Source: Capsulimonadaceae bacterium
GTDB lineage: Bacteria > Armatimonadota > Armatimonadia > Armatimonadales > Capsulimonadaceae
Assembly (NCBI GenBank): GCA_965215505.1
Contig: OZ244065.1
Location: forward strand, 4,416,001 to 4,480,000
Direction: 5' to 3'
DNA: 64,000 nucleotides
Each line of letters starts with the position of its first letter. The stretch's first letter is position 1. The notes beneath the pieces were generated by a model, which made no database searches, was not told where the DNA came from, and saw nothing but the letters and a program-made list of their open reading frames with translations. The position numbers were made by a program, and so were the translations under genes. Shown one piece after another: positions 4,570 through 36,850 of the stretch.

Positions 4570-4645
4570 TCCCTGATAGCTCAATTGGCAGAGCGTTCGG
4601 CTGTTAACTGAAATGTTGTAGGTTCAAGTCCTACTCAGGGAGCCA
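4570..4645 (+). tRNA. tRNA-Asn(GTT)
   Basis: Acceptor stem TCCCTGA/TCAGGGA, D-arm AGCTCAATTGGCAGAGC, anticodon loop CTGTTAA, T-loop GGTTCAAGTCC, encoded CCA end; 76 nt. Confidence 0.97.
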
Positions 4646-4792
4646 CCCCTTTTCACGATGCTTTCACTAATCCCGTGAAGCTTTCACGAAGTCCTCTTTG
4701 ACAACCTCTCCCGCAGCCTATCGCATTGTATCATAAGAATTGGCGTTTGTCCAGGACTCGTTCTTCCCCACTTCCGTCATAGAAGGCAAACC

Positions 4793-5347
4793 ATGAACGC
4801 AGACTGGCTGGTGCGCGTCGGCCCCGTCGTCGGCGCGCTCTTCCTGGCGCGCATCGTCGGCCAGTGGCGCGGCTCCAAACGGCAGAAGGCAGCCATGACG
4901 ACGCCCCTGTTCGACGGTGCTCTCCTGGAAGCCGTCTTCCAGCCCCGCCCGCGCGACGGCGACGACGCCGACCTCTTGGCCGAGGTGCGGGACACCCTGG
5001 CCCACCTCAACCGCCAGGCCTGGGCCGAGGAGTTCTGGGGCCTGAACGAGCAGATCGCCGCCCTCTACGCCAAGATCGCCCCCCCCCAGCAGGCCACCCT
5101 GCGCCGCGCCCTCCTGCGCCTGCTGACCGCGAACGACCGCTGGCTCCAGCTCGTCGCCGCCAAGACCGCCGCAGACCTCGGCATGGCCGAGGCAATCCCC
5201 CCCCTGCGCGCCATCCTGGAGATGGGCGACTCCCAGACCTTCTCCGCCAGCAAGGCCGAATACTCCAGCGCCGACGCCGTCACCCTGCGCTTCCGCAAGG
5301 TGCTGGAAGAGGCGCTTGCGACCCTGACGATGGAGGCGACTCCATGA
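4793..5347 (+). CDS. Hypothetical protein, N-terminal TM plus HEAT-repeat-like C-terminus
   Basis: High-GC3 codon usage; hydrophobic N-terminus; AAKTAADLGMAEAIPPL resembles a HEAT/PBS repeat. Confidence 0.6.
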   Translation: MNADWLVRVGPVVGALFLARIVGQWRGSKRQKAAMTTPLFDGALLEAVFQPRPRDGDDADLLAEVRDTLAHLNRQAWAEEFWGLNEQIAALYAKIAPPQQATLRRALLRLLTANDRWLQLVAAKTAADLGMAEAIPPLRAILEMGDSQTFSASKAEYSSADAVTLRFRKVLEEALATLTMEATP

Positions 5348-5381
5348 AGTCACCGGCCCTCCGGGCTTCGGAGCGGTCCGT

Positions 5382-5406
5382 GTAGGGGTGCCGCTTGCCG
5401 CGCCCT
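5382..5406 (+). repeat. GTAG-type REP-like palindrome
   Basis: GTAGGGGTGCCGCTTGCCGCGCCCT; one mismatch to the copy at 61327-61351. Confidence 0.7.
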
Positions 5407-5513
5407 CTGTATTCTCTATGCCCTCCGTATTCTCTATGCCCTGTCCAGCCTGCCGCGCTCTCCTAATGCCTCTCCCATGAACCCGCCCGCTAGGCCCACT
5501 GAAAGCCCCGCCC

Positions 5514-6005
5514 ATGAAGTTCGACTACACCCTCGACTACAAGACCCTGGACCTGCGCGCCCACCCCGAGCTGTACCGCATCGGGGTGGGGGAGCAGGGC
5601 GTCCTCCTGGTCGAGCCGTACAAGAGCGAGATCCTGCCCCACTGGCGCTTCGCCACCCCCGACGCCGCCCGCGAGTCCTCCGAAGCCATCTGGGCGATGT
5701 TCCAGGACTACGGCCGTCAAAACGACTTCGTGGGAATGGATCTCGCCAGGAAGTTCTTACAGATGGGAATGACCCGCGCCCGCCGCTACGCGAACCACAA
5801 AGGCGGCCACAAATACGACGGCCCCGTCCCCGAAGACAAGCGCGGCCAGAGCGGCGCACACGGCCGGGCCGTCCTGCCCTACACCACCGACCCAATCAAG
5901 GCCGAATCGGCCGCCATCTTTCGGGCTAAGTGGGAAGAAGCCAAGGCCGACCCCACCTACCAACGGCTGATGCAGAGGCACCGGGAGATGTACGAAATGG
6001 GATGA
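5514..6005 (+). CDS. DUF4385 family protein
   Basis: HPELYRIGVGEQGVLLVEPYKSEILPHWRF and DFVGMDLARKFLQMG-TRARRYANHKGG. Confidence 0.85.
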   Translation: MKFDYTLDYKTLDLRAHPELYRIGVGEQGVLLVEPYKSEILPHWRFATPDAARESSEAIWAMFQDYGRQNDFVGMDLARKFLQMGMTRARRYANHKGGHKYDGPVPEDKRGQSGAHGRAVLPYTTDPIKAESAAIFRAKWEEAKADPTYQRLMQRHREMYEMG

Positions 6006-6124
6006 TCTTCTCTCTGTCTTGCCGGATGCGGCCTGCTGTCGCGAGGGGGAAAGATACACGGCAGGAATGAATGGAATAACATGAACACGCGCAAGCCCCC
6101 TGGATCTGGTGGTTAGGGATCACA

Positions 6125-6568
6125 TTGCTGGTCCTGCTCTTCTTCGGCTTCATCTGCCAGCGGCTCGGGACGCTGAGGGGCCTCCTCGGCATGCGACCCT
6201 TACCGCCGAACAGCTTCCTTGGCTACCAGTTCGGGACGCCAAACCGCGTCCCGCCGCCGAGCATCGCCATTAACCTGTATGACCCGAACATCATCGAAGT
6301 CGCGGATTTTGGACCCGCAACCATGACCGGTGTCCGAGCCTCGATCTCTGGTGTTCCGCCGGTGTATCTTGGGACCATTCGGCCCCTCAAGAGCGGCAGA
6401 AATCTGTCCAGCCAGATCGCCAAGACTTCTTTCTGGATACCGCATCCTTGGCCTGTTGGGTCGCCACGATATATGAAGATACGTCTGCAATACTGGGCCG
6501 ATGGCTATCTACAGGACGGCACCTATACCATCAGGGCATACCCTAAGCCACCATTTGAGCCTTTCTGA
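6125..6568 (+). CDS. Hypothetical membrane-anchored protein, lower GC, start uncertain
   Basis: 147-aa ORF with hydrophobic N-terminus; the frame is open upstream to a TAA at 6077. Confidence 0.45.
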   Translation: MLVLLFFGFICQRLGTLRGLLGMRPLPPNSFLGYQFGTPNRVPPPSIAINLYDPNIIEVADFGPATMTGVRASISGVPPVYLGTIRPLKSGRNLSSQIAKTSFWIPHPWPVGSPRYMKIRLQYWADGYLQDGTYTIRAYPKPPFEPF

Positions 6569-6726
6569 GAAGTGTTACTCGGCTCGCCGCTCCCCCCCGT
6601 GAAACCCTGTAAGCTCTGCGTGGTTAACGGATGAAGGCGCTCTCCGACTCAAGTCACTGATGTTACGCACTGTCTGCCGCCTCTCCCTAGTACGCTACCC
6701 CGGCGGAGCGAGCGGGCTGGGAGCGG

Positions 6727-6875
6727 GCCGAGTGGTTGAAAACCACTCGCTAGGAGAAGCGTTCTGCGAACGGGAATACGGATGCCGGATGTCTCCGCCC
6801 CCAAGGGGCCATTTCGGGGCCATCTCCTGTGTCCGCAGGACACTTCTCCTAGCGAGTGGTTTTCAACCACTCGGC
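6727..6875. repeat. REP/BIME-like doublet: 33-bp perfect inverted repeats, each with an internal palindrome
   Basis: GCCGAGTGGTTGAAAACCACTCGCTAGGAGAAG at 6727-6759 and its reverse complement at 6843-6875. Confidence 0.85.
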
Positions 6876-6989
6876 ACTCGGCTCGGCACGCGGCTATGCC
6901 TGCGTAACATCAGTCAAGTCATCCTCTCCCCTTCCGATCCTCTCCTCGGTAGTTGCCCTCCGGGTAGCCAGTGCTGCGCCGGGAGAGGT

Positions 6990-9443
6990 TCACCCCTTCA
7001 CCCGCACCGCCCTCCCGTCATCCAGCACCACCAGCACATTGTCGCCCAGGCTGGTGTAAGCCGCCAAGCTCGGGTACTTCTTCAGCAGGGCGAAATGGGC
7101 GTCGCTGAAGGCCTGCACGGTCAGCACGTCCTTCTGCTTGGCCGCGTCGTAGGCGCTGTCGGTCCAGACGCCGCCTTGCAGGGTGAAGGTCTTCGTGCCC
7201 ACCGTGCGGACCCGGTCGCCGACGGCCTTGGCCTGGTCCGCGTCATAGCCGGCCAGGCCGCTGGCGACCGAGGCGCTTTTCGTGGCGCGCAATGCCTGGC
7301 TCTGGGTCGTGGCGACCGGCCCGCTCAGGGCGGCATACGCCTGGGGCGGGGCAGGGGAAGGAGATTTCAGGATCGGTCCGCCGAAGCCGCCTCCTCCACC
7401 GAAACCGCCCCCGCCGACGAACGGCGGCGGGGCGGGCACCGGGACTCCGCGCCGGATGCCGTGCAGGGGGCCGCCGAACGGCGCGTTCTCCTCGCTGCCG
7501 TCCGTCACCAGGAATGAGGTGTAGGGGGTGACGACCCCATACTCTTTGGACAGGCGCACGACCTCAGCCACCAGTTCCGGGTCGTCCGCGCTGCCGCTGC
7601 CGCCGGTCGTGTCCGTCTGGCGCAGGCGGATCGCGTCCAGAAGGTAACCGATCTTGCGCGTCGCCCACAGGCGCGGCAGGAAGTCGTTCGTGTCCGCCAC
7701 GGCGGGCAGCGTCGTCGCCAGGGAACAGGAAACCGGCCTGCCGCCGACGTTCCCCGTCAAGCGGGCGGTGACCGGGCCGCTGCCCGTGTAGCGGCCGGCA
7801 ATCAACAACTGCGAGCCGGTGAACAGGTCGGGCAGCTCGGACGGGTTCGGGTACAGCTCCGCCGTCTGCGCGCCGCCGATCTCGACATGCACATCCGTCA
7901 GCACCGGCGAGGCGACCTTCTTGTAGAAGCGCGAGACCTTGGCCTCGATGTCCTCCTCGGGCCGGACGTAGTCCGAGTCGCCCCGGTTCGCCTGGGCCAG
8001 ACGGTCCAAAAAGTGGACGTCCACGTCGTACCCGACGCCGAAGTCGAACAGGCGGACGTGACGCGCCCGGCTCAGGGCGCGCGCCCCCGCCGTGATCTTC
8101 GCGTCGTCCGTCTCGCCCACCGTCGGCAGGCCGTCGGTCAGGAAGATCGTCATGTTCTGGCTGCCGCCGTCCCCGCCCGCCTCGGCCGGGAACATCTTCA
8201 GGGCGGCGTCCAGGGCGTCATGGATGTTCGTCCCGCCCTCCGCCTCGATCCCCCGGACGAAGGCCAGGCCGCGCTTGACGTTGTCCGGGGTGGCCCGCAG
8301 CAGGCCGCCGGGGCTGAGGATATCGTTCGACTCGTTGAACGTCATCACGTTGAACTCGTCGCCCGGCCGCAGGGCTTGCAGGACATAGGCTAGCGCGCTC
8401 CGGGCCTGCTCGATCTTCGGCCCGGCCATCGAGCCGGACCGGTCCAGCACCAGCACGACGCGCTTGGGCAGGGCGGGGGCGTCCGGCAGGGCCATCTTGG
8501 GCGAGGCCATCAAGAGGAAGTAGCCCGAGTCGCGCTTGCCCTCCGCGCCCGGCGTGAAGGCCGCCGTCCGCGCGCCCGCCAGGGAGACGTTGTAGGCCAG
8601 CAGCCCCAGGCCCACCGGGTCCTTCCGCACGGTGCTGTAGTAAAGGATGAAGTCGTCCTTGACCCGCGCGTCCTTCGCCTCCCAGGTGACGGTCGCCGCC
8701 GTGTCACCCGTCCGGCGGATGCTGACGTCGTGCGTCGGGGAGTAGATGTTGGCGAGCGCCTCGCCGTCCTGCAATGTTACCTGCACCGTCGTCTCGCGCG
8801 GCAGCGGCCCGCCCGCCGCGCCGCCGCCCAGCGTCCCGCCGAGGAACGAGTAGACGTACTTGCGGGCGTCCCCGCCCTCGGGCGGCAGGGCTTCCGCGTA
8901 CTTCAGAGTCACCCGGCGCGTCGCGTGGGGCGGGACCGGGTACAGCTTGACCTCATAGGCCCCGCGCCCGACATAGCGCAGCAGGGCCGGGTCGCGCTGA
9001 CGCCGGACGATGCCCTCGTAGGTATCGGCGGCCTGGTCCTTGTCCAGCAGCCGCCCGGTCATCTGCTTGTCCCCGTCATACAGCGCGAAATCCGAGACGG
9101 TCGCGCCCTCCGGCAGCGGGAACAGGTACGAGCCTTCCTGCGCCATGTCCGTGTCGTTGCGCCAGATCTGCTCCACCTCCGTCTGCGCGACTCCCCCCGC
9201 CATCGCCGTGCGGATGTGGACCGCATCAATCGTCAGCACCTGCTGGAAGGCCGGCCGCCAGACCGGCGGGGGTGCCCAATCGGGCGGACTCGGCCAAACC
9301 GGCGGATGTGGGCGCGGCCTGACTTCTTGCCGCACCTGGGCATGAACGGGGGATGTAGGGCGGGCGGCGTACAGCGCCCCGGCCCCGACCACCAGGGGTA
9401 GGGCGACCATCAGCATCGAGCGGGTAGGGATGAGCGGCATCAC
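6990..9443 (-). CDS. VIT and VWA domain protein (inter-alpha-trypsin inhibitor-like), exported
   Basis: VIT (YLFPLPEGATVSDFA, RQRDPALL); VWA MIDAS DRSGSM, GGTNI, FLTDG; AGGAG RBS before GTG 9443/ATG 9440. Confidence 0.9.
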   Translation of the reverse strand: MMPLIPTRSMLMVALPLVVGAGALYAARPTSPVHAQVRQEVRPRPHPPVWPSPPDWAPPPVWRPAFQQVLTIDAVHIRTAMAGGVAQTEVEQIWRNDTDMAQEGSYLFPLPEGATVSDFALYDGDKQMTGRLLDKDQAADTYEGIVRRQRDPALLRYVGRGAYEVKLYPVPPHATRRVTLKYAEALPPEGGDARKYVYSFLGGTLGGGAAGGPLPRETTVQVTLQDGEALANIYSPTHDVSIRRTGDTAATVTWEAKDARVKDDFILYYSTVRKDPVGLGLLAYNVSLAGARTAAFTPGAEGKRDSGYFLLMASPKMALPDAPALPKRVVLVLDRSGSMAGPKIEQARSALAYVLQALRPGDEFNVMTFNESNDILSPGGLLRATPDNVKRGLAFVRGIEAEGGTNIHDALDAALKMFPAEAGGDGGSQNMTIFLTDGLPTVGETDDAKITAGARALSRARHVRLFDFGVGYDVDVHFLDRLAQANRGDSDYVRPEEDIEAKVSRFYKKVASPVLTDVHVEIGGAQTAELYPNPSELPDLFTGSQLLIAGRYTGSGPVTARLTGNVGGRPVSCSLATTLPAVADTNDFLPRLWATRKIGYLLDAIRLRQTDTTGGSGSADDPELVAEVVRLSKEYGVVTPYTSFLVTDGSEENAPFGGPLHGIRRGVPVPAPPPFVGGGGFGGGGGFGGPILKSPSPAPPQAYAALSGPVATTQSQALRATKSASVASGLAGYDADQAKAVGDRVRTVGTKTFTLQGGVWTDSAYDAAKQKDVLTVQAFSDAHFALLKKYPSLAAYTSLGDNVLVVLDDGRAVRVKG

Positions 9444-9532
9444 GGTTCTCCTTGCGAAGCGGGCTTCTTGGGCCATTAGACCCGCCCCACACCGAGGGGC
9501 TTCAATCCGTCGGTAATCATGAAGAACGGTGT

Positions 9533-10996
9533 TCACACCGAATACATCGTCTCCAAATCCACCAGCACAAGTCTCTTTGGCTCCTGGGCCGCCGCGATCT
9601 CCGTCAGACGCGGCGTGAACCCGGAGCGGGAGAACAGGACCAGGACGGGGTCGGAGCCGTCGAGGCCGGCGAGTGTCAGGTCGCGCTGCAAGGCGGCGTA
9701 CTCGCGGACATCCACCGCCGCCTCGGTCCACTTGCAGGAGCCGGCCAGGACCACCTGGCCGCGCATGTCCGTCGCCATCACGTCTATCTCGCGGTCCCCA
9801 ACGCCCCACCACGTCCCGACCTCGGTGAACCCCGTTTCGGCCAGGGGCGCGACCGACGCGGGGCGCGCCTCCGAGGCAAGGACGCGCCAGAGGAACTGGC
9901 GACAGGCGCGCTCGAATGCGGGACGGGAGACGTACTGGCTCAGGGAGGGCGCGATGGTCTGCTCCCAGAGCCGTGCCCCCAGGCCGCGAACGATCAGGCT
10001 GCGCGCGGGGTCCACATAGCGATACCAGAAGTCCAAATAGTTGTCGGCGAGGAAATACAGCGAGTTGCGTGAGCGGGCCTGGCCGCGCTCCGTGATCGGC
10101 ACCTCGCGTACCAGCAGGCCCATCTCCTGCAAGGTCGTGAGCTGCGGGGCCACGTCCTGCGCCGCCCCCTTGCCGATCGTCTTGGCGATCTCGGACGGGC
10201 GGCGGTCGCCCTGTGCCACAGCCCGGAGGATGGAGCCGTAGGTGACATCGCGCCGCAGGTCTTCCAGCAGCAGCCAGTTCGGTTCTTCGGAAAGATAGGT
10301 GTTGCGCCGGAGTACCGTCGCCATCAGGTTCCCCGCGATACCGATGCCGGGGTCGAATTGTTCCAGGTAGGAGGGCATCCCGCCGAGAATCGCATACGCC
10401 TCCATCCTCTCGCGCGGAGAATAGCTGGGGAAGAACAGGCCGGCGTCGGCATAGTCCATCGGCTCCAATTTGAGCGCCCCGGTGCGGCGATTATAAAGCG
10501 GGGCATTGCTATCCAACACTTGCCGCTCCATAAAGGCGACATAGGAGCCGGCGAGGAAGACCTTCAGGTTGGGACGGCGCTTGTTGGCGTCCCACCAGTG
10601 CTGGAGGGTGGTCAGCAGGCCGGCGTCCACATCCGCGAGGTAGGGCAGTTCATCAATCACGACGACGACTGGAACGGGATTACCGACCGCCTCGCGTTCG
10701 GCGGCTTGATGAACAAGGAAGTCCAGGAAAACGGGGACCGAGGCGAAAGGCTGCCCCAAAAACGTCTCCGGGTAGGCCTCTCGGGCGGCCCCGGTGAGTG
10801 CCGCTAGCTGAAGCGGCAGAGTGCGGCGTGTCGCCCGGTAAAAGATGTAAGGGAAGGCTGCCTCCTGCAAAGCCTGCTCCAGCAGGGCGCTTTTCCCGAC
10901 GCCCCGCCGGCCGTACACGATGATCAACTCAGAGCGCGGTGAGGAAAGCACCCCTCCCAGCATGGCGCGTTCCTGCTCTCGGTCATAAAACTGCAT
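9533..10996 (-). CDS. Archaeal-type ATPase with wHTH and C-terminal DUF234/PD-(D/E)xK nuclease-like domain
   Basis: FYDREQE, Walker A YGRRGVGKS, Walker B VVIDELPYL, GGMPSYL, DNYLDFWYRY, WW...EIDV...GSCKW. Confidence 0.88.
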   Translation of the reverse strand: MQFYDREQERAMLGGVLSSPRSELIIVYGRRGVGKSALLEQALQEAAFPYIFYRATRRTLPLQLAALTGAAREAYPETFLGQPFASVPVFLDFLVHQAAEREAVGNPVPVVVVIDELPYLADVDAGLLTTLQHWWDANKRRPNLKVFLAGSYVAFMERQVLDSNAPLYNRRTGALKLEPMDYADAGLFFPSYSPRERMEAYAILGGMPSYLEQFDPGIGIAGNLMATVLRRNTYLSEEPNWLLLEDLRRDVTYGSILRAVAQGDRRPSEIAKTIGKGAAQDVAPQLTTLQEMGLLVREVPITERGQARSRNSLYFLADNYLDFWYRYVDPARSLIVRGLGARLWEQTIAPSLSQYVSRPAFERACRQFLWRVLASEARPASVAPLAETGFTEVGTWWGVGDREIDVMATDMRGQVVLAGSCKWTEAAVDVREYAALQRDLTLAGLDGSDPVLVLFSRSGFTPRLTEIAAAQEPKRLVLVDLETMYSV

Positions 10997-11010
10997 AGTA
11001 GTCCCCTGAA

Positions 11011-11051
11011 TAGTATAATCATAATTAGTATAATCGTGATTATACTAATTA
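11011..11051. promoter_or_regulatory. AT-rich operator-like palindrome upstream of the ATPase
   Basis: TAATTAGTATAATC-GT-GATTATACTAATTA (11022-11051) plus an extra TAGTATAATC at 11011. Confidence 0.7.
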
Positions 11052-11117
11052 CGGTGTGGAAACGCAAGCGTTCCAAAATCGGCATCAAGACAGTATAATC
11101 TGTCGGAGGCTTTTTGT

Positions 11118-12185
11118 ATGACCGACGCCCTAGCCCTTGTCCGTGAACTCATCGCCCTCCCCGGCCCGCCGGGGCAGGAGGACTTGGTACGCACCACCGT
11201 CGCCGCCCATGCCGACCGGCTGGGGTGCGCCCACGAAACCGACGCGCGGGGGAACCTGCTCCTGTCCCTGCCCGGCGCGGGCAATATCCCCGCCCATCCC
11301 GACATCGTGGTGATGGCGCACCTGGACGAGATCGCCATGCTCGTCGTCGGGGCCGAGGCGGACGGGCGGCTGGCGATCACCAGTTTGGGCGGCGCGTACC
11401 CGTGGAAGTGGGGCGAAGGGCCTGTTCAGATTTTGGCTTCGGGTGGGCCGCTGACCGGCATCCTGTCCTTCGGGAGCATCCACACCAACGACGGCGGCAG
11501 CACGGCGGCCCAGGCGCGGGAGCGGGCCTTGACCTGGGGCGATGCGCGGGTCTGGACCGGCCTGACCGTGGAGGAACTGGCCGGGCGCGGCGTCCGGGCG
11601 GGGACGCGCGTCGTCCTGCACCCGTCCCAGCGGACCCTGACCGAAGTGGGCGAGTTCGTCTCCGCGCCCTTCCTGGACGACCGGGCGGATGTCGCCGCCC
11701 TGCTGCTGGCTTTAGAAAGAGACGACGTGAAGGGCATGGACCCTGCCCGCGTTCTGTTCGCCGCGACTGCCGCCGAGGAGGTGGGCTGCCATGGGGCGCT
11801 CTGGCTGCTGAACCAGCGCCCCGCCGCCGTCGGGATCGCGCTGGAGATCGGGCCGCGCGTGCCGGAAAGTCCGTTCGTCCTAGATGACCAGCCGACCGTC
11901 TGGGTCAACGACGGCTACAGCGCCATGCAGGCCCGCGACATTGACCTGGTGGCGCGCGCCGCCCGGCGGATCGGGCTAACGCCCCACTTCCAGGCCCTCT
12001 CGCGGGGCGGCAGTGACGCCTCCTGCGGGGCCTCGCGCGGCCTGGTCGCCCGCCCCATCACGCTGGCCTTCGGCGCGGAGAACTCGCACGGCCACGAGAT
12101 CATGCACCGGAACGCCGTCCCGAACCTGGCCGCGCTGCTCGCGGCGACTCTGACGGAGGTTTTAGGGGAGGGGAACCGTGGGTGA
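11118..12185 (+). CDS. M42-family (M20/M28 clan) metallopeptidase
   Basis: PGPPGQE, AHLDEI, LDDR, AEEVG, GGSDA, NSHGHE. Confidence 0.85.
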   Translation: MTDALALVRELIALPGPPGQEDLVRTTVAAHADRLGCAHETDARGNLLLSLPGAGNIPAHPDIVVMAHLDEIAMLVVGAEADGRLAITSLGGAYPWKWGEGPVQILASGGPLTGILSFGSIHTNDGGSTAAQARERALTWGDARVWTGLTVEELAGRGVRAGTRVVLHPSQRTLTEVGEFVSAPFLDDRADVAALLLALERDDVKGMDPARVLFAATAAEEVGCHGALWLLNQRPAAVGIALEIGPRVPESPFVLDDQPTVWVNDGYSAMQARDIDLVARAARRIGLTPHFQALSRGGSDASCGASRGLVARPITLAFGAENSHGHEIMHRNAVPNLAALLAATLTEVLGEGNRG

Positions 12186-27110: not shown

Positions 27111-27238
27111 ACCTCTCCCCGCCGCAAGCGGCGACCCTCCCCTGTTAAGGGAGGGTGAGAAGTGAGGCGTCTGCCTGTGCTGTTTTGTCTTCACCCTTCC
27201 TTAACAGGGAGGGGTCGGCGCTTGCGCCGGGGGTAGGT
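27111..27238. repeat. REP-like inverted doublet between nusG and rplK
   Basis: ...CCCTGTTAAGGGAGGGTGA... and ...TCACCCTTCCTTAACAGGG... form ~50-bp imperfect inverted arms with GCAAGC/GCTTGC hairpins. Confidence 0.7.
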
Positions 27239-27768
27239 TACGAAATCTTCTCGATCTGGCTGAACTCCAGCTCGACCGGCGTGTCACGCCCGAAGATGGA
27301 GATAAGCACCTTGACCTTGTCCTTGGGCGCGTTGATCTCCTGAATGCTGCCCGTGAAGTCCCCGAACGGGCCGGAGTTGACGCGCACCGCCTGGCCGACT
27401 TCCCACTTGGGGCGGATGTACGGCTTGGTGTCGGACTCCTCGATGGCCTTGCGGATCTCGCGGATCTCCGAATCCTTGACGATGGTCGGCTTGGCGTCGC
27501 CGACGAACCCGATCACGCCGGTCGTACTCTTGACCAAGTACCAGGTGTTGTCGTCGAGTACCATCTCGACGAAGACATACCCTGGGAAGACCTTGCGGTC
27601 TATTTCGCTCTTCTTGCCCTGACGGACGCGCGATTCCTTCTCGGTCGGAACGAGGATGTCGAACACTTTGTTCTTCAGCCCCATCGTCTCCGCCCGGCGC
27701 TCGACGTTCGTCTTGACTTTCTTCTCGTGGCCCGAATAGGTGTGGACCGCGTACCAATGCTTCTGCAT
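27238..27768 (-). CDS. nusG: Transcription termination/antitermination factor NusG
   Basis: WYAVHTYSGHE, FPGYVFVEM, KOW GPFGDFTG, IFGRDTPVELEF. Confidence 0.98.
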   Translation of the reverse strand: MQKHWYAVHTYSGHEKKVKTNVERRAETMGLKNKVFDILVPTEKESRVRQGKKSEIDRKVFPGYVFVEMVLDDNTWYLVKSTTGVIGFVGDAKPTIVKDSEIREIRKAIEESDTKPYIRPKWEVGQAVRVNSGPFGDFTGSIQEINAPKDKVKVLISIFGRDTPVELEFSQIEKIS

Positions 27769-29763: not shown

Positions 29764-30540
29764 ATGCTGCGGATGAAAGACGTGCCGCCGGACCAGATGG
29801 CGGAGGTCGTGCGGGTGGCGGGCGAACTCTACGACGCTGAGAAGGCACAGGCCCAGGAGCGACGCGCCACCGTCGCCGCCGCCGCCGAGATGGGCCTGCC
29901 GAAAGAGTACCTGGACCGGGCCGCCGAGCTTGTCCACGCCCGCCGGGTGGAGCAGATCGGCAGGCAGCGCCGCCGCCGGGCCGGCCTGTTCGCCGGCATC
30001 GGCGTTGCCGTCGCGCTCGGGGGCGGTTGGTTCGTGACCCACCCCCAGCCCGCCGCCCCCGTGGTTTACAGCTTCCAGACGGGGCAGTGGAACCTGGAAA
30101 CCGACCCCGCCTCCAAAGCCGCCGTGACCTCCGCGGACGGGGCCGCCACCATCCACGTTGACCACTTCGGGACGTCCGCCGGGGCTGACCAGTTTTTCGT
30201 CAACCTCAACACCAAAGACGTGCCTAAAACGCTTGTAGGCTACCGCACCGTCAGCTTCCGCGCCAGGAGCCTCGGGCTGGCCCATCTCCGTCTCTACCTG
30301 GAGAACGGCGACGAGCGATGGCGCTCCGCCAACCTCGCGGTGCCGACCGGCGGGCAGGTGTTCCGGCTTGACCTCCGCCAGTTCGACCACCAGACCCGCG
30401 ATGTGTCTACGGGCAAGTGGCAGAAGGTGGGGGCGAGCGCGCCGGGCCACGTCGAGCAGTTGTCCTTTAAAGTCGGCTACTACGTTAACAACGCGGACGC
30501 GCATGGGGATGTCCAGGTCAGTGACTTACGGTTCCAGTAG
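29764..30540 (+). CDS. Bitopic membrane protein: helical N-domain, TM, CBM/CIA30-like beta-sandwich
   Basis: RRRR then a hydrophobic helix; C-terminal GYRTVSFRAR...LDLRQF...VEQLSF...VQVSDLRF. Confidence 0.65.
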   Translation: MLRMKDVPPDQMAEVVRVAGELYDAEKAQAQERRATVAAAAEMGLPKEYLDRAAELVHARRVEQIGRQRRRRAGLFAGIGVAVALGGGWFVTHPQPAAPVVYSFQTGQWNLETDPASKAAVTSADGAATIHVDHFGTSAGADQFFVNLNTKDVPKTLVGYRTVSFRARSLGLAHLRLYLENGDERWRSANLAVPTGGQVFRLDLRQFDHQTRDVSTGKWQKVGASAPGHVEQLSFKVGYYVNNADAHGDVQVSDLRFQ

Positions 30541-32170
30541 GCCGGGTGCCTGGGCCGCCTACCGCGGACCGGGCGGCGATGCGGCGCTTCTGAGCCGTCT
30601 GATTGGCCCTGGCGCAGGGGCGCAGAACGGCGCAGTCTGGGGCCTCGGAGCGCACGGCGGGGTAGCGGAACCGGCGCGACTGATGTGCGCGCCCGGCGGG
30701 CTGATCCGGGCGCAAATTGGCACGGACGAAGAAGCCGGGTGTTCCGCCACAATCGCCCCGGATGGCGGCACTCTGACGCTGGCCTGTGACCCGTTCGGCC
30801 TGCACGGCGTCTTTTATACCCGGATCGGCGGCACATTCTGGGCCGCATCCGACCCGTGCCTCCTCCGAAATCTGCCCGGCGCTTCGGGTGGCCTGTCGCC
30901 CGATGCGCTGCACGGCTATCTGTGTTTCTCCCATGTGCCGACGCCGTTGACCATGACGGCGGGCGTCTCGGCCCTTCCCGCCGGGCACCGGCTGATGGTC
31001 ACGGCGGGGCATGTACAGGAAGAACATGGCCCGGCCTGGCGCGAGCGGGAGCCGACGCCGCTTGACGAAGACGCCCTCGCCGGGGAACTGCGCGGCCTGC
31101 TCCGGGCCGCCGTCGCCCGCCGCCTGGGGAACGATTTGGACGTCGCCGTCTTCCTCTCAGGCGGCCTGGACAGCAGCCTCATCGCCGCCCTGCTGGCGGA
31201 GGCCGGGGCGCGCGTTCACCTGTTCACGCTGGACTTCGGCCCGCCGTTCGACGCCGAACTGGCCTGCGCGCATCAGGTGGCCGCGCACCTGAAACGGCCA
31301 TTGCACGTCGTCCCGGCCCGGCCCGCCCAGATACGCGGCGCGCTGGAGGCGACCGGGGCGGCGATGCAGCAGCCCCTCGGCGACGGCGTCGCCGTTCCCT
31401 TGTACCTGCTGGGACAGGCGGCGCGGGCGCACGGCCTGACTACCGCTTTCAACGGCGAGGGCGGCGACCAGCTTTTCGGCGGCTGGGCCAACAAGCCGAT
31501 GATCGCCGCCGAGCTATACCGCCCGACAGGGGGAGACTTGGAGGCCGACCGCGAGGCCGCCTACCTCGCGACTTACCACCGCTTCTGGGGCCTCACCGAT
31601 CAGTTTTACACGCCGCAGGCGCGGGAGGCTATTACTGGGCTGGACGCCGGGGCTTGGGTGCGTCCGGCCCTCAGTGCCGACGGCTCTCCCAGCCCCAGCC
31701 TGCTGCACCGCCTGCGGGCCGCCAACCTGCGGCTGAAAGGGGCGCAGAACATCGCGCCGCGCGCCGTCCAACTGGGCGCGGCGCACGGCCTGCGTGTCCA
31801 GATGCCGCTCTTCGACCGGGCGCTGACGGAGTGGACCTTCGGCCTGCCCTCCGAGTGGTTCCTGCGCGGCGCGTGCGAGAAGTACGGGCTGAAGCGAGCC
31901 GCCGAGGCATTTCTGCCGTTCGAGATCGTCTGGCGCGAGAAGCGCGGCATGGGCGTCCCGGCCACCGAGTGGTGCCTGGGGCCACTGGGCCGAGAAGTCG
32001 CACACTGGCTTTCGCCGCGACGGCTGAAGCGGGACGGCCTGTTTGAACCCGATGCCGTTGCCCGTCTCCGGCGCGGCGAGGACCAGGGAGGCGAGTTCCG
32101 GCGTCGCCGCGTGGGCGAAAAGCTTTGGGCCTTGCTGATGCTCCACGTCTGGCGCGAAACACACCCATGA
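30503..32170 (+). CDS. Asparagine synthetase-like protein 1 (no N-terminal Cys)
   Basis: DPFGLHGVFY, SGGLDSS PP-loop, NGEGGDQLFGG, EKRGM; start may be 30503, 30509 or 30521. Confidence 0.85.
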   Translation: MGMSRSVTYGSSRPGAWAAYRGPGGDAALLSRLIGPGAGAQNGAVWGLGAHGGVAEPARLMCAPGGLIRAQIGTDEEAGCSATIAPDGGTLTLACDPFGLHGVFYTRIGGTFWAASDPCLLRNLPGASGGLSPDALHGYLCFSHVPTPLTMTAGVSALPAGHRLMVTAGHVQEEHGPAWREREPTPLDEDALAGELRGLLRAAVARRLGNDLDVAVFLSGGLDSSLIAALLAEAGARVHLFTLDFGPPFDAELACAHQVAAHLKRPLHVVPARPAQIRGALEATGAAMQQPLGDGVAVPLYLLGQAARAHGLTTAFNGEGGDQLFGGWANKPMIAAELYRPTGGDLEADREAAYLATYHRFWGLTDQFYTPQAREAITGLDAGAWVRPALSADGSPSPSLLHRLRAANLRLKGAQNIAPRAVQLGAAHGLRVQMPLFDRALTEWTFGLPSEWFLRGACEKYGLKRAAEAFLPFEIVWREKRGMGVPATEWCLGPLGREVAHWLSPRRLKRDGLFEPDAVARLRRGEDQGGEFRRRRVGEKLWALLMLHVWRETHP

Positions 32171-33270
32171 AATGCATCCACTGTAACACGGACACCACCT
32201 ACCCGGTGCGGCGCGGCAACGGGGGCCGCTGCCGCTCTTGTCAGCACCCGTTCGCCTTCGAGCCGAAGACCGACGCGCTCGGCGTCGCCGACGGTCTGTT
32301 CCAAAGGGCGGTCAAGGACGTGTCCGGCGACAGGGCCGTCTTCTTCACCGAGGGCCAGTTGTGGTATGAGTTCAACCGCCGCCTGCTCCGCAAAAAGGTC
32401 CCCGTCTCGTCCGGCTCGGTCCTGATCGGTGTCAGTGGTGCCGGCGGGGTCGTCGTCGCCCTCGCCGCCCACACCTTCTGGCCGCTCGCGTTCATCACCG
32501 TCCCCGGCGTCATCGGCGGGGCCTTGCTGCGCGCCCGCGCCAAGCGCGCCAACATGCTCCCGCACCCCCTGATCTCGACGGGCGGGTTTCATGCCAAGTA
32601 CCTGACCCGTTGGAGCGCGGTACATGGCCCGATCCCGAAGCTCCTGCCGCCCGTCGTTTCCCAGCCCGCGCCCGCCGCGCCGCCCTCGGACATCTCCGCG
32701 TTCAGCTTCGACCGCGCCCTGGTCACGGACCACGCCGCCGTCGCCGCCATGCTGGTCGCCAACAACTTCCACTTCGAGAACAACTGTGCCATCCTGAGCG
32801 CGGACGGCTACCCGCAGCACGTCGGGGCCACTCTGATGACCATGCTGCGGCGCAACCCGCGCCTGCGCGTCTTCGCCGTGCATGACGCTTCGGAGGCCGG
32901 CTGCGGGCTGCCGCTGGAACTGCGGCGGGAAGGCTGGTTCCCGGACCCATCCGTCCAGGTCTTCGACCTGGGCCTGCGGCCGAGCCACGTCCTGAAGATG
33001 CGCCCGATCTCGTTGCCGGGCGGGTCGCGCACTCTGCCGCCCGCCCTGCGCGCCACGCTCGCGCCCGAGGAGGCGGCCTGGCTGGAAGGGGGAACCAGCG
33101 TGGGCCTGGAGGTCGTCCGCCCGGCCAAGCTCATGCGCTCGATCTATCAGGGCTTCGCCCGCGCCGACCAGGCCGGTTCCGTCGGCGGCGGTGACATGGG
33201 CGGAGACGGCATCATTATTTGGGGATACGACGGCGGCGCGGACATCCAGGCGGCGGACAGTTTCGGCTAG
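32167..33270 (+). CDS. Zn-ribbon + 2TM + TOPRIM-like protein with Gly/Asp-rich tail
   Basis: CxxC...CxxC; two hydrophobic helices; GYP...VFAVHDASEAG...LGLRPSH; ATGA overlap with the upstream gene. Confidence 0.7.
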   Translation: MKCIHCNTDTTYPVRRGNGGRCRSCQHPFAFEPKTDALGVADGLFQRAVKDVSGDRAVFFTEGQLWYEFNRRLLRKKVPVSSGSVLIGVSGAGGVVVALAAHTFWPLAFITVPGVIGGALLRARAKRANMLPHPLISTGGFHAKYLTRWSAVHGPIPKLLPPVVSQPAPAAPPSDISAFSFDRALVTDHAAVAAMLVANNFHFENNCAILSADGYPQHVGATLMTMLRRNPRLRVFAVHDASEAGCGLPLELRREGWFPDPSVQVFDLGLRPSHVLKMRPISLPGGSRTLPPALRATLAPEEAAWLEGGTSVGLEVVRPAKLMRSIYQGFARADQAGSVGGGDMGGDGIIIWGYDGGADIQAADSFG

Positions 33271-33296: not shown

Positions 33297-34994
33297 ATGA
33301 ACGACTTTTTCGGTGTTTACGGCGTCCCCGACCCGGCCCGCGCCCTGCGGTCCCTGGGCATCACGCCGGCTTGGAGCGATGCGGACGTGGCCTTCGGCGG
33401 TGCCCCGGTCTGGGCGGACTCGTCCGGGACGGTCATCGCCTGCGGCGAGCTGATACTCGACAACGCCGAGGAGTTGCGCCGAATGCTCGACCGACCCCAA
33501 GCCGAGCCGGGGGCGCTGCTGGCCGAACTCGCCCTGTGCCACGGTGACCAGGCCGGCAAATACGCGCGCGGCATGTTCGCCGTCGCCCTGTGGAACACGC
33601 GCGAGAAGACTTTGACCCTCCTGCGTGACGGGGTGGGGGCGCGGACGCTCTACTATGCCTCTTCGGGCCGTGCCTGCTGGTTCGGGGCGCGCCTGCGCGC
33701 CCTCCGCCGCTGCCCCGCCGTGTCCGACGCCCTCTCACTGCCCGCCCTCCGCGACTACCTCACCTGTGCCTTCGTGCCCGGCGCGCAGACACTGTGGCGG
33801 GACGTGTCCGAGCTGCGGCCCGGCACGGCGCGGGTCTGGCCCGGCGGTGCCACGCACTCCCACTGGGAGCCGGCGGAGGACGCCTCGGACTGGGCCGCCC
33901 CGATGGAGACACACGCCGCACGCCTGCGCGTTCTGCTGGAAGAGGCCGTGCGCGACTGCCTCCCCGCCACGGGTCCGACCGGCGTCTTCCTCTCGGGTGG
34001 ACTGGACAGCAGCCTGGTCGCGGCCCTTGCCGCCCGTGACGTGCCCGGACCGCTGCACACGTTCGCCATCCACTTCGGGCCGGAGTACCCGCACGAGCTG
34101 GAATACTCGGACCTGGTCGCGCGGCACTGCGGGACGCATCACCACGTCATCGCCCTGCCCGCCAAAAAGATCCGCGAGGCGCTGCCCGAGACGATGGCCG
34201 CCCTGGACGACCCCATCGGGGACCCTTTGACCACGCCGAACCTCATCCTGGGCCGGGCGGCCGCCGCCGAGACCGGCGTGGTCCTGAACGGCGAGGGCGG
34301 CGACCCCTGCTTCGGCGGCCCCAAGAACCTGCCCATGCTCCTGCACGAGCTTTACGGGGGGGGGCCTGACAGTGAACAGACGGGCCGTGCGGGGGCCTAC
34401 CTGCGCGCCTTCCAGAAGTGCTATGACGACCTGCCGCGCCTGCTCCTGCCGGATGTCCGGACGGCACTGCGCGCCTCGCCGCCCGAGGCGTTACTCACCC
34501 CGCTGCTGGACGATGAGGCTTCGGCACACTATCTGAACCGCCTGATGTACGTCAACACGCGCTTCAAGGGGGCCGACCACATTCTGACCAAGGTGAGCAA
34601 CCTGACCTCGGTGTGCGGCCTGCTGGGGCGCTCCCCACTGTTTGACCGCCGCGTCGTCGGGGCGAGCTTCGCCATCCCGCCCGAATTCAAGCTGTCCGGG
34701 GCCAGCGAAAAGGCCGTGCTGAAACGCGCCGTGGCCGACCTCCTGCCGGAAATCATTTTGACCCGCCCTAAGAGCGGAATGCTGGTGCCGGTGCAGGCCT
34801 GGTTCGCCCGCGATCTGCGCCCGATGGCCCGCTCCCTGCTCCTCAGCCGGCGCTCCCGCATCCGCCCATACCTGGACCAGACCCTGGTGCGCGAGTGGCT
34901 GCAAGGCCGCCCCCACCTGCGCCCCCGCGCGGGCGTCAAGCTGTGGCTCCTGCTGACGCTTGAGCTATGGCTGCGGGCGAATGAGGCGGAATGA
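33297..34994 (+). CDS. Asparagine synthetase-like protein 2 (no N-terminal Cys)
   Basis: MNDFFGVYG in place of MCGI; GMFAVALW, RDGVGARTLYY, SGGLDSS, NGEGGDPCFGG, RPKSGM. Confidence 0.9.
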   Translation: MNDFFGVYGVPDPARALRSLGITPAWSDADVAFGGAPVWADSSGTVIACGELILDNAEELRRMLDRPQAEPGALLAELALCHGDQAGKYARGMFAVALWNTREKTLTLLRDGVGARTLYYASSGRACWFGARLRALRRCPAVSDALSLPALRDYLTCAFVPGAQTLWRDVSELRPGTARVWPGGATHSHWEPAEDASDWAAPMETHAARLRVLLEEAVRDCLPATGPTGVFLSGGLDSSLVAALAARDVPGPLHTFAIHFGPEYPHELEYSDLVARHCGTHHHVIALPAKKIREALPETMAALDDPIGDPLTTPNLILGRAAAAETGVVLNGEGGDPCFGGPKNLPMLLHELYGGGPDSEQTGRAGAYLRAFQKCYDDLPRLLLPDVRTALRASPPEALLTPLLDDEASAHYLNRLMYVNTRFKGADHILTKVSNLTSVCGLLGRSPLFDRRVVGASFAIPPEFKLSGASEKAVLKRAVADLLPEIILTRPKSGMLVPVQAWFARDLRPMARSLLLSRRSRIRPYLDQTLVREWLQGRPHLRPRAGVKLWLLLTLELWLRANEAE

Positions 34995-35007
34995 CCTTCC
35001 TACCTTC

Positions 35008-35031
35008 GTAGGGGCGGGGTTCCCCCGCCCT
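35008..35031 (+). repeat. GTAG-type REP-like palindrome
   Basis: GTAGGGGCGGGGTTCCCCCGCCCT. Confidence 0.7.
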
Positions 35032-35068
35032 CTGGTCCTGATATGTCGCTGTGAAAGACAACCACCCA

Positions 35069-35794
35069 ATGACCTTCCTCCCGCTCCCCCTCCAAAACGG
35101 CCTCCTGCTGGACCTCACCGACGGTGCCCACCCCACGCAGGTCTTCGGCTGGACTGACGGCGTTCTGGACCTGCCGCCCGGCGCGACCCACTACGGCATG
35201 GTCACGGAGGGGGAGGCTGGACTGACCTTCGACGGCGGCCACTTCCGCCTGCGGCCCGGCATGTACTTCGTCCTCCCCGCCCAGGCAACACTCTCCGGGG
35301 CGGGCAGCCGGGGCCTGGTCGTCTCGCGGCTCGGCTACACTGGTCTGACCCAGTGGGGCGGGCCGGTGGAGGCGCAGGGCCGCCTGCGCTACATTGACGG
35401 CTGCTCCGACACCCTCCTCGTCTGCCCGCCCCAGAAGGGCGAGCCTTGCCTCAACCACCTGCACATCCCGCCCCGCACCAGCCAGTCCGCGCACACGCAC
35501 CCCTCGGAGCGCATCGGCGTCATCCTGCGCGGCGCGGGCGAGTGCCGCACACCGGACGGCACCTTCGCGCTGGCCCCCGGCATGGGCTGGCGCATCCCCG
35601 CCGGGTGTGAACACTCCTTCTTCACGACCGAGGCGAGCCTGGACGTCATCGCCTGGCACCCTGACTCCGACTTCGGCCCCACCCACGATGACCACCCCAT
35701 GGTCAACTTGACTCTGGTGGGCGGCGTCTCCGCCGCGCAGATTGACGCCATTCGGACCGGGGAGCTGAATGAAAGGAAACCCAATGGAAATTAA
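35069..35794 (+). CDS. Bicupin metal-binding protein
   Basis: HTHPSERIGVILRGAG...EHSFFT cupin motifs; YIDGCSDT; HPDSDFGPTHDDHPM. Confidence 0.8.
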   Translation: MTFLPLPLQNGLLLDLTDGAHPTQVFGWTDGVLDLPPGATHYGMVTEGEAGLTFDGGHFRLRPGMYFVLPAQATLSGAGSRGLVVSRLGYTGLTQWGGPVEAQGRLRYIDGCSDTLLVCPPQKGEPCLNHLHIPPRTSQSAHTHPSERIGVILRGAGECRTPDGTFALAPGMGWRIPAGCEHSFFTTEASLDVIAWHPDSDFGPTHDDHPMVNLTLVGGVSAAQIDAIRTGELNERKPNGN

Positions 35795-36302
35795 CATCAG
35801 CCCCGCGCCCCCCGACTGGCGCAAGACCGTCGCAGAGCGCACCCCGCTCTACGGCCACCGCAACTGGATCGCCGTCGTGGACTCCGCCTACCCCGCCCAG
35901 TCCCAGGGCGGCATCGAAACCATCGTTGCCGACGCCGACCAGGCCGAGGTCGTGGGGGCCGTGCTGCAAGCGCTGTCCGCCTCCCGGCATGTGCGCCCCG
36001 TCGTCTACACCGACGCCGAACTGGCCTTTGTAGACGAAGACGACGCCCCCGGCGTCACCGCCTACCGCCGGCAGCTCGCGGCGGTCCTGGGGGACAACGC
36101 CGCGACCGGCCTGATCCACGAACAGATCATCCAAAGGCTGGACGAGGCGGGGCAGACGTTCCGCATCCTCATCGTGAAGACGGACATGACGATCCCCTAC
36201 ACCTCTGTTTTCTTCCAGCTCGACTGCAAATACTGGAGCGCCGAGGCGGAGCAGCGGTTGCGCGCCCGGATGCCCGCCGAGACACCGGAGGCGGCCAAGT
36301 GA
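35784..36302 (+). CDS. RbsD/FucU-like (sugar mutarotase/pyranase fold) protein
   Basis: YGHRNWIAVVDSAYP and IVKTDMTIPYTSVFF. Confidence 0.7.
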   Translation: MEINISPAPPDWRKTVAERTPLYGHRNWIAVVDSAYPAQSQGGIETIVADADQAEVVGAVLQALSASRHVRPVVYTDAELAFVDEDDAPGVTAYRRQLAAVLGDNAATGLIHEQIIQRLDEAGQTFRILIVKTDMTIPYTSVFFQLDCKYWSAEAEQRLRARMPAETPEAAK

Positions 36303-36850
36303 CGACGACAGCCATGTCCCTCAGAGCCGGCATTGAGATCGTGGAAGCGGCCATTGACGACAAGCCGATCCTGCGCCAACTTCTGGAGCTGTACCAGTAC
36401 GACTTCAGCGAGTTCGAGGGGACGGACGTCGGGCCGCACGGCGTTTACGGATACCGCTATTTGGACCACTACTGGACGGAGCCTGACCGCCACCCCTATC
36501 TTATCCGCGTGGACAGCCGCCTCGCGGGCTTCGCCCTCGTCAACCGCCACGCCGTCAGCGGCGAGGATCGCCGGTCACTCGCCGAGTTCTTCGTGATGCG
36601 GAAGTACCGGGGGCGAGGCGTCGGCGAATTCGCCGCCACCCGCGTCTTCGACCTCTGGCCTGGGAAATGGGGGGTCGCGCAGGTTGCCTCCCACCCAGGC
36701 TCCTCCGCCTTCTGGCGCAAGGTCATCCGCCGGTACACGCGCGGCGAGTTCGAGGAGCGCCAGGCCGAGTGGGGCGGACAGCACGGCCCCGTACAACTCT
36801 TCGACAACTCGGGCCGCGCAGCGGTGGGGGAGGAAGGCGCGGAGTCATAA
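36299..36850 (+). CDS. GNAT N-acetyltransferase
   Basis: LYQYDFSEF, AEFFVMRKYRGRGVG, AFWRKVI. Confidence 0.88.
   Translation: MTTTAMSLRAGIEIVEAAIDDKPILRQLLELYQYDFSEFEGTDVGPHGVYGYRYLDHYWTEPDRHPYLIRVDSRLAGFALVNRHAVSGEDRRSLAEFFVMRKYRGRGVGEFAATRVFDLWPGKWGVAQVASHPGSSAFWRKVIRRYTRGEFEERQAEWGGQHGPVQLFDNSGRAAVGEEGAES

Follow-up and report, generated by a model that had tools for sequence, protein, structure and literature searches.

The window analyzed here, a stretch of 64,000 nucleotides from contig OZ244065.1 of a Capsulimonadaceae bacterium (positions 4,416,001-4,480,000 of the forward strand; all positions below are window coordinates), encodes on its forward strand, at 32167..33270, a protein of 367 amino acids that we denote X. 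This protein combines a zinc ribbon and a predicted membrane hairpin with a TOPRIM domain of the TopoVI-A/Spo11 class, and its gene is located between those of two AsnB-like amide ligases, denoted ASNa and ASNb. The reading frame extends from the ATG at 32167 to the TAG at 33268-33270; the frame that the first-pass annotation of this DNA had given for the gene is real, its coordinates are correct, and every motif quoted there is found in the translation. In an alignment of 38 sequences, homologs of X share a Met-Lys-Cys start, and because they begin at the same MKC that is encoded from ATG 32167, the upstream alternative start, TTG 32125, was rejected. The ATG shares bases with the TGA stop codon of the upstream ASNa gene, and this ATGA overlap is also present in 11 of the 26 loci in which ASNa directly precedes X.

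Starting from the N-terminus, X consists of a zinc ribbon (residues 1-30; 32167..32256), a conserved two-helix cytoplasmic module (residues 31-77; 32257..32397) with the signature HPFAFEP..D42..S53, a two-helix membrane hairpin (residues 78-125; 32398..32541), a conserved juxtamembrane helix (residues 138-153; 32578..32625) marked by W149, H153 and G154, the TOPRIM domain (residues 175-336; 32689..33174), a Gly/Asp-rich linker (residues 337-352; 33175..33222) and a conserved tail (residues 353-367 and the stop codon; 33223..33270) that ends in D-S-F-G-COOH. The four cysteines of the ribbon (C3, C6, C22 and C25) are invariant in 38 of 38 aligned homologs and are found in 237-238 of the 250 homologs on which our conservation counts are based, the remainder being gaps; zinc-ribbon Pfam families match the X homologs weakly. 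Residues 78-125 form the sole hydrophobic stretch of the protein and, by hydropathy, comprise two transmembrane (TM) helices, which the AlphaFold2 model places at 82-101 and 105-128. There are 5 Lys or Arg residues in front of the hairpin and 4 behind it, and the seven-residue loop is uncharged; because of this charge distribution, the positive-inside rule predicts an N-in/C-in topology with both soluble parts in the cytoplasm. Hydropathy and flanking charges thus agree with the two TM helices that had been proposed from the sequence. The model (built on 38 sequences; mean predicted local distance difference test score, pLDDT, 84.1; predicted template modeling score 0.80) is well defined at the juxtamembrane helix, with pLDDT 91-97 over residues 138-153, and drops below 50 at residues 339-348 of the linker, the length of which differs among the aligned homologs.

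The assignment of the inner domain rests on profile and structure searches. The Pfam profile PF21180 (TOP6A-Spo11_Toprim; gathering cut-off 24.1 bits) aligns with residues 185-245 of X itself below the cut-off (16.5 bits, E 0.0088), matches 35 of the 38 homologs at E<=1, with a best E-value of 2.6e-6, and exceeds the cut-off in 3 of the 9 longer homologs (40.5, 28.9 and 28.8 bits). A Foldseek search initiated with the model ranked TopoVI-A first, albeit with an E-value of no better than 0.012, and the structure comparison showed that the alpha/beta fold of the X domain is superposable on that of TopoVI-A; the next closest folds are those of the plasmid-defense nucleases MksG and JetD. A sequence-profile search of the PDB retrieved 1d3y only, with a non-significant score (E 0.83), and the residue alignment alone was taken from it. 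These matches to PF21180 and to the TopoVI-A structure show that the inner domain of X is a TopoVI-A-type TOPRIM domain, as the first-pass annotation had suspected when it described such a domain as membrane-anchored and preceded by a zinc ribbon and named the lack of any TOPRIM hit in profile and structure searches as the result that would speak against it. A six-frame search with PF21180 of 21 whole genomes of relatives produced no match at E<=0.01 and found the control in 4 archaea, this search being too insensitive for the X branch. The RecR-type TOPRIM domain, which is non-catalytic and also comes with a zinc finger (PDB 3ve5), is a far weaker structural match to X than TopoVI-A. RecR works in recombination and, unlike X, is a soluble protein that has no AsnB-like partners.

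Among 8000 candidates scored, 570 proteins match X at E<=0.001; the relatives form 1114 representatives after clustering at 50% identity and are encoded in 423 genome stretches, so that the observation is not due to chance. For the analysis of gene neighborhoods, we used the 80 best loci among these 423 stretches, which come from a collection with one genome per species, together with the window (81 loci in total). The 80 loci originate from Cyanobacteria, Armatimonadota, Acidobacteria, Gemmatimonadota, Chloroflexota, Myxococcota and other phyla. Literature searches for the family found no publication that describes it, and the RefSeq label of the copy on a plasmid of Gloeothece PCC 7822 is 'hypothetical protein'. 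Only 2 longer proteins came into question as fusions, and Pfam detected in them no domain other than the zinc ribbon and the TOPRIM domain of X. The cyanobacterial X proteins, of about 430 amino acids (for example, at 4626-7299 of locus L063), contain additional hydrophobic segments that separate the ribbon module from the TOPRIM domain. They are frequently encoded in tandem, with both members of a pair retaining the invariant residues and the tail, which suggests that the two form hetero-dimers.

Compared with the reference fold, the TopoVI-A/Spo11 TOPRIM domain (PF21180; PDB 1d3y, 2zbk, 2q2e, 9o0g and 8uru), X is remodeled at the active-site edge (D188, H239-D240-A241-S242 and D267). The HMMER alignment with 1d3y equates D188 with the TOPRIM Glu, D240 with the first Asp and S242 with the second Asp of the DxD motif. 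In the 250 homologs, position 188 is occupied by D (152), E (54), Q (27) or, in the other 17, residues such as G (6), N (6) and S (3), and ranks 123rd of 367 in conservation, that is, it is mostly acidic and is neither fixed nor kept as Glu. Position 240 is D in 210 sequences, N in 25 and S in 10 (rank 69 of 367), and at position 242 Ser (176) and Thr (60) take the place of Asp (6; rank 97 of 367). The DxD motif accordingly lacks its second Asp in 244 of 250 homologs, with D240-A241-S242 in the window protein, and the full acidic triad at 188, 240 and 242 is found in 2 of 250. H239, a family-specific invariant His immediately before the first Asp, and H202 are each present in 249 of the 250, and conservation is high at N230, P216, N199, R183, W257/F258 and D267 as well. 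Because the acidic positions drift while H202, H239 and N230 are far better conserved, these counts show that the canonical E/DxD metal triad is, to judge from the sequences, not under selection in the X family. The description of the DxD as degenerate, made before any search, stands with respect to the second Asp, which is replaced by S242; it goes too far for the site as a whole, in which acidic residues are kept at D188 (the Glu position) and D240. Further differences from TopoVI-A/Spo11 are that X has no B subunit and that it carries the zinc ribbon and membrane hairpin in front and the DSFG tail at its end; moreover, no 5Y-CAP/winged-helix domain or catalytic Tyr was detected in X.

X also differs from TopoVI-A/Spo11 in being encoded together with AsnB-like ligases: AsnB-like open reading frames (ORFs) are present in 76 of the 81 loci. 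ASNa (30521..32170, forward strand; start uncertain, the called ORF begins at 30368) is an AsnB-like PP-loop ligase (PF00733, 1.9e-62) without an N-terminal Cys nucleophile, and ASNb (33297..34994, forward strand) is a second such ligase (PF00733, 3.7e-73) whose N-terminal domain is glutaminase-like (GATase_7, 6.4e-13) and likewise lacks the Cys nucleophile. The PP-loop motif S-G-G-x-D-S is kept at >=90% in both subfamilies (66 and 59 sequences; SGGLDSS in ASNa), and there is no conserved Cys in the N-terminal region of either. Most ASNa proteins begin with M-x-x-[FL]-x-G-Y-W-G, and the window ASNb begins with MNDFF. A few ASNa proteins from loci of the myxobacterial type (L045, L060, L062 and L072) start with MSGICG, with a Cys four residues in, which may be a remnant of an Ntn-amidotransferase N-terminus or a pro-peptide form. 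The combination of a PP-loop adenylating domain with a missing N-terminal Cys is shared with beta-lactam synthetase (1jgt), carbapenam synthetase (1q15) and the lasso-peptide cyclases, and the scores of ASNa and ASNb are far under all family cut-offs for such AsnB-family enzymes without glutaminase activity. In particular, the NCBIfam matches to lasso-cyclase and macrolactam-cyclase models are sub-threshold (for example, 121.8 bits against a 525-bit cut-off for the lasso cyclase), and no lasso B-protease, RiPP recognition element or precursor gene forms a conserved neighbor cluster in the 81 loci among ORFs of at least 80 amino acids, the size limit used in clustering, under which a short precursor could escape.

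X and the ligases are coupled in gene order, in translation and in phyletic distribution. The 72 ORFs of the ASNa subfamily all precede X and share its strand, and the 59 ORFs of the ASNb subfamily all lie downstream of X. In a sample of 121 genomes of the phylum, X is present in 5, and ASNa-type matches at E<=1e-90 are found in exactly these 5 genomes, with two matches in each; the ligase matches flank X in 4 of the 5, and in the remaining genome (G013) they are spread over two contigs. Among the 116 genomes of the sample without X, 115 have no match at E<=1e-60. In two of the five, genomes from the same order, the module looks decayed: on contig 62 of G013 and contig 5 of G017, X is split or truncated and ASNa contains an in-frame TGA or TAA; the fragmentary X together with the interrupted ASNa suggests that the two genes decay jointly.

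The other conserved neighbors of X are few; besides the AsnB-like proteins, the clusters are limited to a pyridoxal-phosphate (PLP) decarboxylase, a cupin, the membrane proteins C4 and C9, and a short-chain dehydrogenase/reductase. C9 (29764..30540, forward strand), found in 16 of the 81 loci, is a single-pass membrane protein that no Pfam family matches above its cut-off. Its TM segment (residues 73-91) separates a conserved helical module at the cytoplasmic N-terminus from a variable, beta-rich outer domain. The N-terminal 80 columns of the C9 alignment are homologous to C4, the membrane protein of the cyanobacterial and acidobacterial version of the module (hhalign probability 96.6%, E 6.7e-10). 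The homology is confined to the cytoplasmic N-terminal helix and the TM, as expected if that part contacts cytoplasmic subunits. C10 (35051..35794, forward strand) is a bicupin protein (Cupin_2, 1.1e-14, in two stretches). The cupin is encoded in 15 of the 81 loci and the LysA-like PLP-type decarboxylase (TIGR01048, 248.6 bits against a cut-off of 297.9) in 49, and no locus contains both. Two versions of the module can thus be distinguished: C9-ASNa-X-ASNb-cupin, as in the window, with 10 complete loci, and C4-ASNa-decarboxylase-X(-X)-ASNb, chiefly in cyanobacteria and Blastocatellia; X is tandemly duplicated in 15 loci.

Taken as a whole, the conserved composition of these loci points to a widespread and so far undescribed membrane enzyme complex rather than to a DNA cutter or a phage-defense gene. 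The reading that we favor, to which we assign about an even chance of being right, regards X as a nuclease-dead TOPRIM scaffold by which an ATP-dependent pathway of amide formation is kept at the membrane. X would be an obligate structural subunit, a scaffold or adaptor, of a conserved membrane-associated amide-ligase module with a core of C9 or C4, ASNa, ASNb and X, in which the ligases would act as ATP-dependent adenylating amide ligases devoid of a glutaminase nucleophile. One enzyme handling amines or CO2 would join this core, namely the cupin in the window and the LysA-like PLP decarboxylase in cyanobacteria and acidobacteria. The zinc-ribbon module and the TOPRIM domain, both predicted to be cytoplasmic, would keep the ligases at the inner membrane face, the DSFG-COOH tail would dock into a partner on its flexible arm, and the pathway would yield a product with an amide linkage, for export or for use at the envelope.

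Several observations weigh against this scenario. In 175 of the 250 homologs, positions 188 and 240 are both acidic. A Streptomyces megaplasmid (NZ_CP108509.1; locus L083, 5387-11065) encodes three tandem X-like paralogs without the FG tail, two of which carry an intact H-D-A-D motif, and therefore the loss of the DxD is not universal in the family; given these paralogs and the acidic pairs, X may retain some metal binding or catalysis. The invariant polar residues S180, D182, R183, H202, E204, C207, N230, H239 and D267 are likewise compatible with X being an enzyme that has acquired a new active site rather than a passive scaffold. Furthermore, the MATE exporter gene located directly upstream of the module in the window genome, which would suit an exported product, is not conserved in the other X loci compared. 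One form that a catalytic or sensory role could take is a TOPRIM pocket rebuilt around the invariant H239, together with D240, S/T242, D188 and D267, which we consider unlikely; it seems just as doubtful that such a pocket binds or hydrolyzes a phosphorylated or nucleotide ligand (ATP, AMP or the acyl-adenylate of a ligase) or senses a nucleotide signal. The occurrence of Q, N, S and G at positions 188 and 240 argues against a fixed metal-phosphate site. In addition, when the invariant residues are placed on the strands of the model under parallel-sheet geometry, they would fall into two groups, with H239, D240, G214-P216 and D267-G269 on the canonical edge of the sheet and S180-R183, H202-C207, N230-P231 and W257-F258 on the opposite edge. 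The second group, which includes D182, R183, H202, E204, C207, N230, W257 and F258 and precedes the strands, looks in the model more like an interface than a pocket.

A different function can also be considered for X on account of its C-terminal tail. Of the 250 homologs, 234 have F366 and 244 have G367, and the last four residues are exactly DSFG in 175. FG is likewise found at the end of 96 of the 97 X ORFs in the 81 loci, and no non-X ORF among 8689 ORFs of at least 30 amino acids ends in [DE]xFG. LysW-type amino-group carrier proteins have a C-terminal carboxylate that is covalently loaded by a dedicated ligase. By analogy only, the ligases could adenylate the carboxylate of the X tail (the alpha-carboxylate of G367 and/or the side chain of D364) and join an amine to it, so that the subsequent chemistry would proceed at the membrane on a substrate tethered to the protein. 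The position of the tail at the very C-terminus, its restriction to X and its placement on a disordered linker of variable length are compatible with this idea, as are the chemistry of AsnB-type enzymes, which activate carboxylates, the lack of an own ammonia source in both ligases and the alternative partner of the module, an amine-making decarboxylase. Moreover, the clustering of ORFs of at least 80 amino acids revealed no conserved gene for a separate precursor, although a shorter one could have escaped it. In the Streptomyces megaplasmid locus, which is a distant, split version of the X module, the X paralogs are followed by an ORF of 179 amino acids that combines a TM with a Gly/Asp-rich tail terminating in DDFG, and then by an ASNb-like gene; given the presence of DDFG on a separate small membrane ORF, the tail looks like a separable functional unit. 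This fission is found in one locus of a high-GC genome with unreliable ORF calls, the support is circumstantial throughout, and a docking motif explains the conserved tail equally well. We hence regard a carrier role as improbable. Its full version, in which the dead-TOPRIM X is a membrane-tethered carrier whose tail is adenylated and amide-linked to an amine from the LysA-like decarboxylase or cupin step, is in our estimate quite unlikely; in that case, the protein would serve as a template at the inner membrane face on which a small molecule or an envelope conjugate is assembled.

The distribution of the module suggests that it is horizontally mobile. In the window genome, X is a single-copy gene; within the genus, 1 of 24 genomes carries it. 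At the DNA level, the surrounding segment of about 18 kb (window approximately 28.2-46.5 kb) is without a counterpart in the genomes of the same genus that were compared (five for the left part and three for the right). One relative of X resides on a conjugative plasmid of the cyanobacterium Gloeothece PCC 7822. On this plasmid, Cy782202, the module occupies 5003-12056 of locus L082, with a gene for a 42-amino-acid PEP-CTERM-domain protein just upstream and a protelomerase gene downstream.

Such a patchy pattern, with X in 5 of the 121 genomes of the phylum and in a single genome of the genus, in a segment not shared with its relatives, and once on a conjugative plasmid, would also fit the view that X is an active nuclease effector of an undescribed defense or conflict system related to JetD/MksG, with the AsnB-like proteins as sensors or regulators, and MksG and JetD are the closest folds to X after TopoVI-A. 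In MksG, a component of the MksBEFG/Wadjet type of plasmid defense (PDB 8b7f and 7til), DNA cleavage depends on the equivalent TOPRIM Glu and Asp, according to the report on it (PMC10123090), and it is these residues that drift in the X family, in which the DxD is incomplete in all but 6 of the 250 homologs. In contrast to MksG and JetD, X is membrane-anchored and has no SMC or kleisin partner genes: SMC-like JetABC/MksBEF genes are absent from its conserved neighbors, and none of 146 flanking ORFs (of 207 eligible, in 49 loci, all below 55% GC) matches a Jet/Mks model. Among these flanking ORFs, 137 have no PADLOC match at E<=1e-10, and most of the 9 matches are generic (TPR, AAA, subtilase, methyltransferase). 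When seven module proteins, namely the window set and two cyanobacterial partners, were scanned against PADLOC-DB 2.0, X and four of the other six had no match, and ASNa had just a weak match to QueC (E 2e-4). No relative of X was found in 50,697 phage records, and the conserved partners are metabolic enzymes. A defense function consequently appears very unlikely, and the context, with few PADLOC matches, no phage relatives and metabolic partners including the ligases, does not support the suggestion of a defense or signaling effector made in the first-pass annotation.

Other features of the window genome accompany the module without being part of its conserved core. The segment between approximately 28235 and 46583 encodes the MATE protein, the X module, RbsD/FucU-like, GNAT and PhyH proteins, a metallophosphoesterase, a DUF2278 protein and two very long ORFs without Pfam matches; between 28 and 36 kb, the G+C content is 0.69-0.72, compared with 0.58-0.67 in the DNA immediately before it. 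The RbsD/FucU-like and GNAT genes that follow the cupin gene (35769-36850) lie on the same strand with overlapping ends and may be an extension of the operon peculiar to the window genome, as they lack conservation elsewhere. Between ASNb and the cupin gene there is a G+C-rich, hairpin-like element of about 40 nucleotides (35004-35047), and an element of about 130 nucleotides is located beside a nusG-like gene (27111-27240); both have many copies in same-genus genomes and look like repetitive extragenic palindromic sequences or miniature inverted-repeat transposable elements. The ligases and the decarboxylase also produce sub-threshold matches to exosortase-associated NCBIfam models, which, together with the PEP-CTERM gene fragment upstream of the module in Gloeothece, raised a possible link to the exosortase/PEP-CTERM system. 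The window genome encodes three exosortases, at 0.45 to 2.8 Mb from the window, and these findings speak neither for nor against such a link.

To our knowledge, DNA cleavage is the only function known for TOPRIM domains of the TopoVI-A/Spo11/JetD class. The X branch comprises over 1100 clusters at 50% identity; it has shifted to the membrane, its catalytic triad has drifted, and it is now tied to two AsnB-like amide ligases. Should the carrier role apply, it would amount to protein-templated biosynthesis of a new kind and would give a TopoVI-A-type TOPRIM domain, for the first time, a role unrelated to nucleic acids. If the module is an enzyme complex, as the scaffold reading has it, X would exemplify a new use of the TOPRIM fold within an uncharacterized, widely transferred pathway, the parts of which, namely the two ligases, the decarboxylase or cupin, and the conserved C-terminal tail, are amenable to experimental testing.

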